From the IMG/VR virus record IMGVR_UViG_2529292906_000009, positions 3,303 to 67,302 of that record: a stretch of DNA of 64,000 nt. The stretch is one strand, 5' to 3'. The notes under the pieces were generated by a model, which had not been told where the DNA came from, did no database searches, and saw only the letters and a list, made by a program, of their open reading frames with translations. The translations under genes were made by a program, and so were the position numbers. Below are positions 2,845 to 52,460 of this stretch, one piece after another; within the stretch, counting starts at the first letter, position 1, and each line of letters starts with the position of its first letter. Origin of the DNA: a virus (taxonomy: Duplodnaviria; Heunggongvirae; Uroviricota; Caudoviricetes).

Positions 2845-3225
2845 CTACTCCGCAGAACCATACAATCTACGTAACGTGTCGGCGACAGAAGATACAGATA
2901 TCTCGCCAGTCGCAGCGCCTACAGTAAGGTCTGCCAGTTCAGGTGAATCAAATACCTGCACCCCGTTACGGCGTAGAAATAGCAGCGCACTGTTTAGCGC
3001 GGTACGCTTATTGGCATCATTGAATATATGCCCTCTCGCTGTAGCCACCAGGTAGGTGGCGGAGACTTCGAAAAGGTCGGTGATCTCTTCGTAGGCAACT
3101 CTGGCCTGAACTCTCCCGATAATGGCCTCTGCCCTACCCGGATCTGACATTCCCGGCAGGCCGCCGTAGCGGCTTATATTCGCATCATGAAGCGCAATAA
3201 GTTCTTCCGGTGATATATGCCTCAT
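2845..3225 (-). CDS. doc: Doc toxin (Fic/Doc family) of the phd-doc addiction module
   Basis: 126-aa product recalled as identical or near-identical to P1 Doc ([22 protein letters not shown]...); start overlaps phd stop by 1 nt (TAATG). Confidence 0.95.
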
Positions 3226-3446
3226 TATCGGTTAACCAGTTCCTTGTTGGTGGAGTCCAGGGTGTCAAACAGGGATGCAAATTCAGCATCCAGCGCCGCT
3301 TTTTTGTAGGCTTCGAAAGTAGCCTTGCTGACAATTACTGCTGGCTCACGGCCTCTGCGGGTGATTTCAACCTCTTCCCCGGCTTCAACATTGTTGAGCA
3401 CTTCAGAAAGGTTGCCACGCGCGGTACGGAAGTTAATGGATTGCAT
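3225..3446 (-). CDS. phd: Phd antitoxin
   Basis: 73-aa product [32 protein letters not shown]... recalled as P1 Phd; immediately upstream of doc. Confidence 0.95.
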
Positions 3447-13645: not shown

Positions 13646-14251
13646 CTACTGAATACGCTCAAACTCGATTACCCAAACCCAGGGATTAGCACTCCAGCTT
13701 TCTTCGCCGTAGATGGATTCCCACAGGCGCTGGAACGCAACCTTGGCCATTGCGAAATCCCCCTTGGGAGTAAGGAATGTTCCCGGGTGATCAGGAAGCA
13801 AACTTCCAGCAGGCGGAACGCCCTCATCCCTTGCATCGCATTCGCTGATATCGTTCAACCGCTCAACGCGCACGTTGGTAATTTCCAGAAGAATGCGCGA
13901 TGCCCAGCGCGGCATGTGAATTGATGGCGTCCACTTTTCTGATACTGGTTTATTACAAACCTCGACCGGAACCCGGTGCGTTTGTTCTGTCCAGGAGTTA
14001 CGCACGCTTGCGCGATAAACCAGCGTTGCGACGTCCGTCGCTTTGCCATGTACCCGGTAGGTTTCGCGAACCCAAATACGATCGCCCGGTTGACCATATG
14101 GACAATGCTTGGCAAGCAACTCTGCGGCCACTGCCCGTCCATAGAATTTTTCTTCAACAATCCTGCGAGTCTGTGTTTTATTCCCGCCAAGAATTGCCCG
14201 GACCATCTCATCGTTAAAAATCATGCCGCGCTCTTTCACTTCGCCTTTCAT
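13646..14251 (-). CDS. ASCH-domain protein, 201 aa
   Basis: ILGGNKTQTRRIV matches ASCH GxKxxExR motif; strong RBS AAGGGGGA before ATG at 14251. Confidence 0.6.
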   Translation of the reverse strand: MKGEVKERGMIFNDEMVRAILGGNKTQTRRIVEEKFYGRAVAAELLAKHCPYGQPGDRIWVRETYRVHGKATDVATLVYRASVRNSWTEQTHRVPVEVCNKPVSEKWTPSIHMPRWASRILLEITNVRVERLNDISECDARDEGVPPAGSLLPDHPGTFLTPKGDFAMAKVAFQRLWESIYGEESWSANPWVWVIEFERIQ

Positions 14252-14260
14252 GCATCCCCC

Positions 14261-14347
14261 TTACCCATGTGCGACGATGCCGCCAAAAGTGATAGAGAAC
14301 AGCCAGAAATAGATCGCGGCCATAATGATTTTGAATGCCGTGTTCAT
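14261..14347 (-). CDS. Candidate 28-aa hydrophobic peptide (MNTAFKIIMAAIYFWLFSITFGGIVAHG)
   Basis: Not in ORF track; AGGAG 8 nt upstream of ATG at 14347; stop 10 nt before the next gene; stable hairpin in its leader. Confidence 0.35.
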   Translation of the reverse strand: MNTAFKIIMAAIYFWLFSITFGGIVAHG

Positions 14348-14429
14348 ATTTTCAGCTCCTGTGATTGATTGGATACATGCCGCGCCTTGCGGCATGTTTT
14401 TATTTTCACTTTCTCTGTTTTAAAAATCA

Positions 14430-14446
14430 AGATTTATTAGAGCAAT
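14430..14446 (-). promoter_or_regulatory. C1-operator-like 17-mer (16/17)
   Basis: agatttattagagcaat on + strand, overlapping the stop of the HAD phosphatase gene. Confidence 0.5.
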
Positions 14447-14952
14447 TATTGTTGATGGAGAAGCGCGTTTTCATACTCCCTGACCATTAACGTAAGTACG
14501 CCGTGACTCCTGAAAACACGCGCCACGTCAATCTTATCTTCCAGCGCGAACGCAATTTTACTTAGACCAATTTTCTTCAGGAGATCAATCTTTGCTGGAC
14601 CGTCATTTCTGTCATCGGTGGCAGGACGCATAGATAGCAAAGGCTCAGTCCCATTTGTTACGTGCTTACGCAACCAGGCTCGTGTTTTATCCCTGGCTAT
14701 CTCACAGCGCCCGGTTACAAACCAGAGGGTGTAAATGCCGGACAACTGGCGCACCATATCAATAACTGGAGTGATGGGAGCATCAGTGTCACAGGCAAGG
14801 TTAAACTCGTTCCAGTGCTCTGTTAATGCACCTTTGCCAGGTGGTGGAAGTAAATGCAGCCTGTCTTCCGTTGCCTCTGATATCGTCCCATCAATATCTA
14901 CTATGACGATGTACGGACGTTCCTGGTGTGCGTGTTTATTGAAAATACTCAA
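14446..14952 (-). CDS. HAD-superfamily phosphatase-like protein, 168 aa
   Basis: VDIDGT motif I of HAD hydrolases near N-terminus. Confidence 0.6.
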   Translation of the reverse strand: MSIFNKHAHQERPYIVIVDIDGTISEATEDRLHLLPPPGKGALTEHWNEFNLACDTDAPITPVIDMVRQLSGIYTLWFVTGRCEIARDKTRAWLRKHVTNGTEPLLSMRPATDDRNDGPAKIDLLKKIGLSKIAFALEDKIDVARVFRSHGVLTLMVREYENALLHQQ

Positions 14953-16288: not shown

Positions 16289-16507
16289 TCAAAGTTCCGT
16301 ATTAGCTTGTGCTTCGGTCATTTTTCCTAAGTATGAAGGAGGAAGGACTACGCAATTTGTATCCAGTCCCTCACCTATGGCAGCCTGTAAAATTCTGGCT
16401 AAGGTGAGTCTCTTGTTGCGATACCTGGTGATGACATGCCTGATACCGCCGGTCGGCGTAACAAAGGCGATCAGCCAGTAGTGATATTTCCGTCGGAATG
16501 GCCACAT
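16289..16507 (-). CDS. Hypothetical protein, 72 aa
   Basis: ORF in track, immediately downstream of operator pair. Confidence 0.4.
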   Translation of the reverse strand: MWPFRRKYHYWLIAFVTPTGGIRHVITRYRNKRLTLARILQAAIGEGLDTNCVVLPPSYLGKMTEAQANTEL

Positions 16508-16521
16508 AGTGCACCTTGTAT

Positions 16522-16587
16522 ATTGCTCTAATAAAAAACGTGATGAGTGTACATCACGTTTTAAAAATATGGAATTATTAGAGCAAT
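16522..16587. promoter_or_regulatory. Pair of C1-operator-like 17-mers in inverted orientation (16522-16538 + and 16571-16587 -) flanking a 20-bp hairpin
   Basis: attgctctaataaaaaa and ggaattattagagcaat, each 14/17; cgtgatgagtgtacatcacg palindrome between. Confidence 0.45.
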
Positions 16588-16588
16588 A

Positions 16589-17290
16589 TTATTCTGATTC
16601 TCGCTCAAAAAATGAGCTGATAAGGGGAAGCCAATCCTCTGACACTTCGCGAGGTCGCGGTTTGCCGTGGAAAAAGATTATTCGGCAGTCTTTTGGTAAT
16701 GCCCCATTCCCCCTGGAGTAACGCGCGCTCGCATATTTTGAACCAGGTTCCACAACATCGGCCTTGTAACTTACAAACCATCCTGGATACAGATCCTGAA
16801 ATGCTGGTGTATCATCGCCCATAACCTTTCGTAAGAACCCCTGGTCACCCCAACACTCAGTAGTGACACAACGAGAAATCCAACCTTCCGGATCTTGCCA
16901 GAATGAACTCCAGATATGCGCTTTAACACTATTTGGTATCCACAGGGCACCGCTGCCACGATATTGTGGATGGTAAAAATCCCTAAGCATGGTGAAGCTG
17001 GTTGGTGGATGCTCTAGGATTGGGCGTATATCACCGGCAATAACCGTGTCCAAATCCAGATAGAACAGATCATCGGTTATATCCGGTCGGAACAACTCGA
17101 TTTTCGCCCACCAGCCACGGCACTTTTGCCACTGGTTGATCAATGGGATAACTTTGACGCCAGGTACATGTAAACACTTCAGGTCTGTCAGGCAAATAAT
17201 TTCATAGTCTTTTGGCAGTTGATTAACCAGCCACTGCACATCGGAAGCGTTATAGTCACCACCAGAGCGAAGAACTAAAGCAATCTTCAT
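16589..17290 (-). CDS. Putative glycosyltransferase-like protein with DxD motif, 233 aa
   Basis: YLDLDTV (DxD-like) in a predicted alpha/beta N-terminal half; family not confirmed. Confidence 0.4.
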
Positions 17291-49785: not shown

Positions 49786-50494
49786 CTTTTTGTGCACAGA
49801 AAACCCCCAGCTAGGCTGGGGGTTCCGGAAAGCTTTCAGCTTTGAGCCAGTTATTAAAACCCCTTTTGATTTGTTAAAACACCTTGCGGTCTGGCAACTG
49901 CAAGTGTCAAACAAGAAATCAAAAGGGGGTCCCAATGGGGAACGAAAAGAGCTTAGCGCACACCCGATGGAACTGTAAATATCACATAGTTTTTGCGCCA
50001 AAATACCGAAGACAAGTGTTCTACAGAGAGAAACGTAGAGCAATAGGCAGTATTTTGAGAAAGCTGTGCGAGTGGAAAAGCGTACGGATTCTTGAAGCTG
50101 AATGCTGTGCAGATCATATCCATATGCTTGTGGAGATCCCGCCCAAAATGAGCGTATCCGGCTTTATGGGATATCTGAAAGGGAAAAGCAGTCTGATGCT
50201 TTACGAGCAGTTTGGTGATTTGAAATTCAAATACAGGAACAGGGAGTTCTGGTGCAGAGGGTACTACGTCGATACGGTGGGTAAGAACACGGCGAAGATA
50301 CAGGATTACATAAAGCACCAGCTTGAAGAGGATAAAATGGGAGAGCAGTTATCGATTCCCTATCCGGGCAGCCCGTTTACGGGCCGTAAGTAACGAAGTT
50401 GGATGCAAATGTCAGATCGTGTGCGCCTGTTAGGGCGCGGCTGGTAAGAGAGCCTTATAGGCGCATTTGAAAAACCTCCGGCTATGCCGGAGGA
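49786..50494 (+). mobile_element. IS200 (IS200/IS605 family), about 0.7 kb; ends approximate
   Basis: tnpA inside; terminal hairpins CCCCCAGC-TAGG-CTGGGGG (49801-49820) and CCTCCGG-CTATG-CCGGAGG (50475-50493). Confidence 0.8.
49935..50393 (+). CDS. tnpA: IS200 transposase TnpA (HUH Y1), 152 aa
   Basis: MGNEKSLAHTRWNCKYHIVFAPKYRR... with HxH motif (HIHML); recalled match to IS200 TnpA. Confidence 0.9.
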   Translation: MGNEKSLAHTRWNCKYHIVFAPKYRRQVFYREKRRAIGSILRKLCEWKSVRILEAECCADHIHMLVEIPPKMSVSGFMGYLKGKSSLMLYEQFGDLKFKYRNREFWCRGYYVDTVGKNTAKIQDYIKHQLEEDKMGEQLSIPYPGSPFTGRK

Positions 50495-52159: not shown

Positions 52160-52460
52160 GCCTCGTAAGTTGATAAACAACCTGCGACCCGCTGTCAAAC
52201 AGGTGGCAGGACGTGACAGGGTTGACAGACTGGCACTTACGAAACCAGCAGGCCGAAGCCTCCCCATCACGCCCCACCATAATTCGGGCGTAACGTGGTT
52301 TTACGGACACAAAAATACCGCAATATCGGAAATGTGCGGTTGTCCGCGTAAGTATTCAGGCTGTCAAACCTGGTCGCAGAATTTGCTGCGACGGCGGAAC
52401 TATAAGCCTGAACGATTAAAAGGTCAATATGATGCGAAAAGATAGCATTCGTGACTTAAA
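52160..52460 (-). ncRNA. Region expected to encode a c4-like antisense immunity RNA and its targets; exact gene not delimited
   Basis: Leader of icd/ant contains repeated GTTTGACAGC and complementary CTGTCAACC elements and several short hairpins. Confidence 0.3.

Follow-up and report, generated by a model that had tools for sequence, protein, structure and literature searches.

A probable micro-gene for a single transmembrane helix behind the C1 operator Op88/OpmgT of P1-like phage-plasmids

The stretch of DNA analysed here (64,000 nucleotides, positions 3,303 to 67,302 of the IMG/VR record IMGVR_UViG_2529292906_000009, hereafter the window) belongs to a punavirus-type (P1-like) phage-plasmid. 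On its minus strand lies a 28-codon open reading frame (ORF) that is probably a protein-coding micro-gene, the first cistron of a C1-repressed early unit behind the operator Op88/OpmgT, encoding a transmembrane (TM) peptide from a message that begins with a 5′ stem-loop. Comparison with diverged relatives indicates that the ORF is a member of a real gene family, of which the window copy is a tail-less, TM-only form. The parts of the module are as follows, in the direction of transcription, with one plus-strand element at the end.

14430 to 14446, minus strand: C1 repressor operator Op88/OpmgT, ATTGCTCTAATAAATCT, with one mismatch to the C1 consensus
14402 to 14430, minus strand: predicted sigma-70 promoter, TTGATT-17-GAAAAT, which is P1pmgT of the P1 annotation
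14375 to 14397, minus strand: stem-loop of 9 bp with a 5-nt loop, the predicted 5′-terminal element of the mRNA
14361 to 14372, minus strand: C/A-rich leader motif CCAATCAATCAC (CCAATCAC in some lineages), directly upstream of the ribosome-binding site
14356 to 14360, minus strand: Shine-Dalgarno sequence AGGAG, 8 nt before the ATG
14261 to 14347, minus strand: 28-codon ORF with its TAA stop, encoding the single-TM micro-protein MNTAFKIIMAAIYFWLFSITFGGIVAHG, found at 154 loci with no frameshift
14398 to 14406, plus strand: T-run TTTTATTTT, which together with the hairpin forms an intrinsic-terminator-like site for plus-strand transcription

The ORF had been picked out in an earlier reading of the sequence (the original prediction) as a 28-residue hydrophobic peptide with a good AGGAG ribosome-binding site (RBS) lying directly behind a C1 operator, and both statements were borne out. 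The peptide has one predicted TM helix, a grand average of hydropathy of 1.30 and a best 19-residue Kyte-Doolittle mean of 2.10, which places it among the small (<60 residues) hydrophobic membrane peptides, as type I toxins are. Its length alone is not beyond chance, as 93 ORFs of at least 20 residues overlap this 5-kb stretch, and its significance comes instead from the RBS and from conservation in diverged relatives. The GGAG of the RBS is invariant across all lineages and correctly spaced. The close spacing to the next gene was also as predicted, with 9 nt (GGGGGATGC) between the stop codon and the following ATG.

Direct searches for homologs of the peptide in its 28-residue form, or the over-extended 44-residue form discussed below, using both a word-indexed search and an exhaustive phmmer run over 1.84 billion representatives, returned only copies at least 92% identical. 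Since protein search gave near-identical copies only, diverged relatives were found via synteny through pap, the conserved upstream neighbour of the module. The Cronobacter phage JK004 (MZ188976), whose Pap is 71% identical, has the same operator, a hairpin and a CCAATCAATCAC-GGAGC leader, followed by a 53-codon ORF (positions 3087–3248 of the JK004 locus, L012) that can be aligned with the window peptide over residues 1–23. When the JK004 protein and then a profile of the family were used as queries, six further protein clusters emerged (P0023–P0028), at loci of identical layout on P1-like contigs, the longest of about 94 kb and several above 90 kb. These and JK004 make up seven diverged lineages (JK004 and L176–L184, with proteins P0022–P0028), which have in common pap, the operator, a −35/−10 pair, a hairpin, CCAATCA..GGAGC and an ORF of exactly 53 codons that overlaps a downstream gene for 102–104 residues through ATGA. 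Other routes to such loci yielded little: scans with Pap gave only two P1-type loci in GTDB and P1-type loci alone in IMG/VR, PLSDB contained no JK004-type plasmid, and the JK004-type leader motif, when sought in IMG/VR, had a single match, within a coding gene and due to chance.

Between lineages the synonymous divergence (dS) ranges from 0.40 to 0.80 and the ratio of non-synonymous to synonymous divergence (dN/dS) from 0.22 to 0.39, which indicates that purifying selection acts on the 53-residue protein. Conservation in related elements, one of the points on which the original prediction had staked itself, is thus present across the seven diverged lineages. Comparison of the P1-type peptides to the 53-residue family by hhalign aligned residues 1–23 in register (92% probability, E=6e-7), and K6, A11 and W15 are kept along with the hydrophobic periodicity while the codons differ. 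The N-terminal TM helix of the window ORF is thus homologous to that of the family, and synteny and the shared leader motif place the two at the same genomic position. AlphaFold2 applied to the family alignment predicts a confident helix at residues 2–23 (predicted local distance difference test score about 86–92), with a tail of low confidence after a K-P break. This tail of 30 hydrophilic residues, SFKPDANM.AS..LGNLS.SYDCDQ, is conserved in the relatives, whereas the window ORF has neither the tail nor the 53-residue total length, ending at residue 28 with GGIVAHG. The window and the 53-residue family are therefore alike in operator, promoter geometry, hairpin position, C/A-rich motif, RBS and residues 1–23, and differ in that the window peptide breaks off behind the TM helix and is not followed by the ATGA-overlapping gene, which is absent from the window altogether.

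The operator is a 17-bp asymmetric site that differs at one position from the consensus ATTGCTCTAATAAATTT, and matches of this kind (up to 3 mismatches) occur ten times in the window when 0.35 are expected by chance. In the P1 record AF234172, as annotated by Lobocka et al. 2004, the corresponding site is OpmgT, formerly Op88, with the predicted promoters P1pmgT and P2pmgT listed beside it, and in the annotation of P7 it is named Op(hea). The operator is retained in all diverged lineages. The predicted promoter consists of a −35 element TTGATT (14430–14425) that abuts the operator and shares one base with it, a 17-nt spacer and a −10 element GAAAAT (14407–14402), and scores 8/12. A −35/−10 pair of that score is found in seven of eight lineages, with the end of the −10 element 54–60 nt before the ATG; the −35 is TTGATT or TTGTTT, the spacer is 17 nt, and the −10 is GAAAAT, AATAAT, CAGAAT or CATCAT. 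Given a bona fide C1 operator with an abutting predicted promoter, repression in the lysogen, which the original prediction had proposed, and early expression of the ORF are both reasonable to suppose. Elsewhere in the window, two C1-operator-like sites with 3 mismatches each face one another at 16522–16538 (plus strand) and 16571–16587 (minus strand), in the gap between an ORF of 72 residues (16289–16507) and one of 233 residues (16589–17290), and a perfect 9-bp hairpin (16536–16561) lies between them.

The original prediction had also placed a 9-bp hairpin in the leader. The hairpin is real, with its coordinates and arms having been given slightly off: the arms are ACATGCCGC and GCGGCATGT, at 14375–14383 and 14389–14397. 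Perfect stems of at least 9 bp with loops of 3–8 nt are found at about 14 places in the window, compared to about 1.1 in Markov-shuffled copies. Every lineage has a hairpin in the same position with a different sequence, for instance:

P1 type: 5′ arm ACATGCCGC, 3′ arm GCGGCATGT
JK004: 5′ arm GGCCGC, 3′ arm GCGGCC
L180: 5′ arm AGCCGC, 3′ arm GCGGCT
L176: 5′ arm TTGGCAGTCAC, 3′ arm GTGACTGCCAA
L177: 5′ arm TTGGCGGTCGC, 3′ arm GTGACCGCCGA
L182: 5′ arm GGGCACT, 3′ arm AGTGCCC

When RNAalifold was run on all lineages jointly, MAFFT had placed the hairpins out of register, and sub-alignments and a hand-centred alignment were used instead. In the hand-centred alignment 85% of cells are paired, compared to 27–46% when the partners are slid, and 10 of 11 pairs have changed on both sides. 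The unbiased MAFFT sub-alignments contain compensatory changes from A-U to G-C and from G-C to A-U, as well as five G·U cells; in an antisense RNA these would become A·C mismatches, so that they fit the sense strand only and point to a structure in the mRNA. Compensatory pairs and sense-strand wobbles together show a structure conserved independently of its sequence, as a 5′ stabiliser would be. In all lineages the hairpin starts 3–8 nt after the predicted −10 element, which should place it right at the start of the transcript, and it is most likely the 5′-terminal stem-loop of the mRNA. Emory, Bouvet and Belasco reportedly described in 1992 a hairpin in the 5′ untranslated region of E. coli ompA that acts as a 5′-terminal stabiliser of the message. 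The Op88 hairpin appears alike in being a stable hairpin a few nucleotides from a predicted 5′ end, with structure kept in the absence of sequence, a likeness that rests on the predicted transcription start.

Between hairpin and RBS, the motif CCAATCA(ATCA)C is kept in all lineages, including L012 and L176–L184, while the flanking leader has diverged. It is predicted to be single-stranded (probability of being unpaired 0.46–0.97), and is plausibly a translational enhancer or standby site, or could be the target of a small RNA (sRNA). Within the window CCAATCAATCAC is unique, and we rejected the idea that it is a repeated regulatory site as it does not recur there above chance. Paired with the phage C4 RNA or the STnc490 sRNA, the leader gave duplex energies that did not improve on those of shuffled leaders. 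The GGAG itself is predicted to be partly paired (probability of being unpaired 0.02–0.41), with pairing partners that differ among lineages and show no covariation.

Despite being part of a module that is almost invariant among P1, P7, SJ46 and JL22, and that is found in full in 564 of 5426 complete E. coli genomes (about 10%), the ORF is unannotated in the P1 and P7 reference annotations and in most PGAP records. In AF234172 pmgT follows directly on the promoter, with no entry for a 28-codon first cistron or for the 5′ hairpin. Where the ORF has been annotated the start codon is wrong: SJ46 (J46_0098) and JL22 (gp98) carry over-extended 44-residue versions, and gene_94 of JK004 is annotated from an internal Met (3132–3248, 38 residues) when the conserved ORF with an RBS starts at 3087 and encodes 53. 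We rejected the 44-residue form, which would start at the ATG at 14395 within the hairpin stem, because this ATG has no RBS, because the diverged lineages have no equivalent of it, and because a common 2-nt insertion in the loop, seen in hsd-type plasmids, breaks the 44-residue frame and leaves the 28-residue ORF intact.

The 154 P1-type loci contain 18 variants of the ORF, with 9 synonymous changes on 18.3 sites and 9 non-synonymous changes on 65.7 sites, or a per-site ratio of about 0.28. No frameshift or nonsense mutation was found in the ORF at any of these loci, indels being confined to the hairpin loop and to positions just after the stop codon. Codons 1–9 are invariant, and the copies diverge by at most about 7%. 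One record, IMGVR_UViG_2695420521_000002 (L069/L162), has the ORF rearranged after codon 19 (MNTAFKIIMAAIYFWLFSINKKTLIVSIV...), and is the sole non-colinear copy among the 154.

The small ORF is the one constant member of the Op88 operon, and its 3′ end is a recombination boundary. The genes after it are part of variable region 8 of P1-like phage-plasmids, a hotspot for cargo that includes resistance genes (PMC9603915), and the left boundary of this region coincides with the end of the ORF. Cargo differs among P1, P7, JL22 and the window after a few shared codons of the next gene, and in the window other cargo has replaced the pmgT of P1. A related arrangement is seen in P1-like plasmids that carry hsd genes (L008–L011, e.g. 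NZ_CP058713, 1–1700), where P1 homology stops directly after the stop codon of the ORF (TAAGGGG), a type I hsdR converges on it, and the ORF with its RBS is retained as the sole reading frame behind Op88. In these plasmids hsdR is followed by an inverted repeat with no T-run, and read-through would thus cross the ORF in antisense up to the P1 hairpin and T-run. Separately, an 84-bp remnant of the 3′ part of the ORF (codon 3 to the stop) is present on IncF plasmids in about 280 PLSDB records, for instance NZ_CP026474 and NZ_CP110194 (2501–2584 in L006 and L007), about 75 bp downstream of a type I hsdR. IS1, whose transposase gene begins some 55 bp beyond the remnant, lies beside it and appears to have cut the ORF; the remnant is a fossil P1-like junction on conjugative plasmids.

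The original prediction had suggested that size and hydrophobicity fit a type I toxin, which would here mean a depolarising peptide whose translation is blocked by a plus-strand cis-antisense RNA arising from within the ORF and ending at 14375–14406. We consider this very unlikely. Type I toxins (Hok/Gef, Ldr, TisB, Ibs, ShoB, ZorO) do resemble the module in size, marked hydrophobicity, the single TM helix and the structured 5′ end of the mRNA, and the hairpin with TTTTATTTT is a textbook plus-strand intrinsic terminator (10 pairs, tail TTTTATTTTC; plus-strand folding z-score −2.6), a detail missing from the original prediction. However, the T-run is the reverse complement of the A-rich −10/start region, which explains it in P1, and it is confined to the P1 lineage, being absent in L176–L184 and weak in JK004; in the window no plus-strand gene lies upstream of the terminator-like site. 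We found no antisense sRNA with a conserved promoter and terminator of its own: the window has no plus-strand promoter scoring at least 9/12 (the best candidate is AGAACA-19-CATAAT), and no other lineage has an antisense promoter conserved in position. The partly paired RBS, with an unpaired C/A-rich stretch upstream that resembles a standby site, would suit a toxin, but the pairing partners vary by lineage with no covariation, and the G·U wobbles of the stem suit a sense RNA only. Though the 53-residue form shares with Hok the arrangement of an N-terminal TM helix and a Cys-containing tail, the tail in the relatives is conserved, hydrophilic and 30 residues long, and neither form could be assigned to a known toxin family (Hok/Gef, Ldr, TisB, Ibs, ShoB and others). 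The 28-residue peptide had no match at E<=10 in Pfam (models for Hok/Gef, Ldr, TisB and Ibs included), NCBIfam or PADLOC, and nothing meaningful in PHROGs; the 53-residue forms had none in NCBIfam or PADLOC and only sub-threshold, unrelated matches in Pfam (YAF2_RYBP, YxzE-like). No Rfam family reached threshold in the region, the best being a weak GcvB-like match driven by the terminator (14320–14403, plus strand, 20 bits compared to a gathering score of 42), which can be counted in favour of an RNA on that strand. Finally, the promoter is controlled by the phage repressor and is not constitutive, and the ORF is the first gene of a polycistronic operon with no conserved antisense or trans-acting sRNA, both unlike type I toxins.

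It is also possible, if unlikely, that the ORF is what was left when a 53-residue gene was cut by the exchange of variable region 8, and that selection keeps the operator, promoter, hairpin and leader as a platform for the expression of cargo while the peptide has no function; translation may then persist, helping to couple translation or suppress polarity. This would account for the missing tail, for the absence from the window of every downstream gene of the 53-residue lineages, for the fact that in several plasmid types homology is lost exactly at the stop codon or just behind it, and for polar or charged substitutions within the helix in some isolates, and the low divergence among P1-type copies makes an intact frame weak evidence for function. 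Against it stand the per-site ratio and the invariant first nine codons, the complete lack of frameshifts despite indels just outside the ORF, and the retention of ORF and RBS even where they are alone behind Op88 and convergent with hsdR. A leader that is purely non-coding, with an untranslated ORF conserved through constraints on the RNA or DNA of the Op88 operon, would explain why curators of P1 and P7, and usually PGAP, have left the ORF unannotated, and 28-codon ORFs are common by chance; we give it hardly any credence, as exactly 53 codons are kept across lineages at dS of up to 0.8 with low dN/dS, with an invariant, correctly spaced GGAG and with conserved residues encoded by differing codons.

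Several points weigh against our preferred reading, a translated micro-gene for a TM peptide. We found no direct report in the literature on transcription start, translation or membrane localisation. The hand-centred alignment of the hairpins leans towards structure. Partial pairing of the RBS could make expression lower or more regulated than assumed. The selection signal within the P1 type rests on 18 changes and would weaken under transition bias, and the helix substitutions include L16Q, G22D or G23D. The P1-type peptide is without the strongly conserved tail of the family and hence could be a tolerated remnant. Lastly, the phenotype of its loss may be subtle, as the neighbouring genes are non-essential.

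For the micro-gene, a plausible course of events can be drawn. In the lysogen C1 bound at 14430–14446 would block TTGATT-17-GAAAAT, the promoter that abuts it. After induction or upon infection, transcription would begin about 5–8 nt after the −10 element, at the foot of the hairpin, and the mRNA would thus be headed by a stable 5′-terminal stem-loop that, by analogy to ompA, would guard it from 5′-end-dependent decay. The unpaired C/A-rich stretch and the GGAG would then drive translation of the 28-residue peptide, which is essentially one TM helix and would insert in the inner membrane. In evolutionary terms the peptide corresponds to the N-terminal TM part of a bitopic protein of 53 residues encoded at the same place in distant P1-like elements, with the reading frame in the P1 lineage ending where the recombination-prone variable region 8 begins. 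Loss of the tail in the P1 type could mean that function needs no more than the TM helix or, equally, that a remnant is tolerated.

The genes on either side of the module are as follows.

14446 to 14952, minus strand: pap, a HAD-type polynucleotide 3′-phosphatase (Pfam PF25109, E=3.6e-11), the conserved gene upstream, the final base of whose stop codon is the first base of the C1 operator
13646 to 14251, minus strand: next cistron, 201 residues, phrog_874, function unassigned, at the start of variable region 8

Besides pap, the neighbours of the ORF are accessory genes of the ea/nin type (DUF1382, Ead/Ea22). CRISPR interference and deletion surveys found the neighbouring genes to be dispensable for lytic growth (PMC10695390), and an accessory role is thus expected for the peptide. 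No lysis gene is adjacent to the ORF, which does not lie in a lysis cassette under late control as a holin or antiholin gene would; its promoter is C1-controlled and early, and is not among the late promoters of P1. For the holin modifier that the original prediction had named as another option, there is evidence neither for nor against.

Other RNA features of the window were seen in Rfam searches. A match to the Hfq-binding sRNA STnc490 at 49802–49925 (plus strand) scores 146 bits compared to a gathering score of 56 and opens with a perfect 9–10-bp hairpin. The immI region contains the C4 antisense RNA and the a1/b1 target element, at 52199–52284 and 52353–52405 (both minus strand), with scores of 69.6 and 61.2 bits that exceed the Rfam thresholds. 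Three tRNA genes (28010–28082, 29722–29794 and 29800–29872, minus strand) are as expected in a P1-like genome.

Small single-TM regulatory peptides are well known in bacteria, for instance SidA of Caulobacter (29 residues) and MgrB, AcrZ and KdpF of E. coli. The peptide is like these in having about 30 residues, one TM helix and a specific regulatory signal, with no relationship in sequence. As to its role, the peptide most likely acts early, as a non-essential modulator of some membrane protein of the host or of the phage, and not as a killer. The known C1-controlled early units of P1 have the same operator, predicted promoter and position after pap, and the module is that unit itself. On present evidence the gene belongs to a known kind, the micro-proteins of phage early operons; it is not a type I toxin, and no new mechanism is indicated.

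P1 is a reference phage with a curated map of 117 genes, yet the first cistron of its Op88 operon is unlisted. The comparative data define a family of small membrane proteins, a 5′ stem-loop with natural covariation, and a C/A-rich leader that is conserved. A more ambitious reading, which we think quite unlikely, is that operator, promoter, stem-loop, leader and TM micro-protein form a conserved cassette for a membrane effector of early lytic growth that all P1-like phage-plasmids share and for which the TM helix suffices in the P1 lineage, and that the P1 terminator could also end a cis-antisense regulator. If this were true, the effector might be a superinfection-exclusion factor, an anti-defence factor or a modulator of the cell envelope or of division, and a functional gene, possibly with an RNA, would be added to one of the most thoroughly annotated phages.

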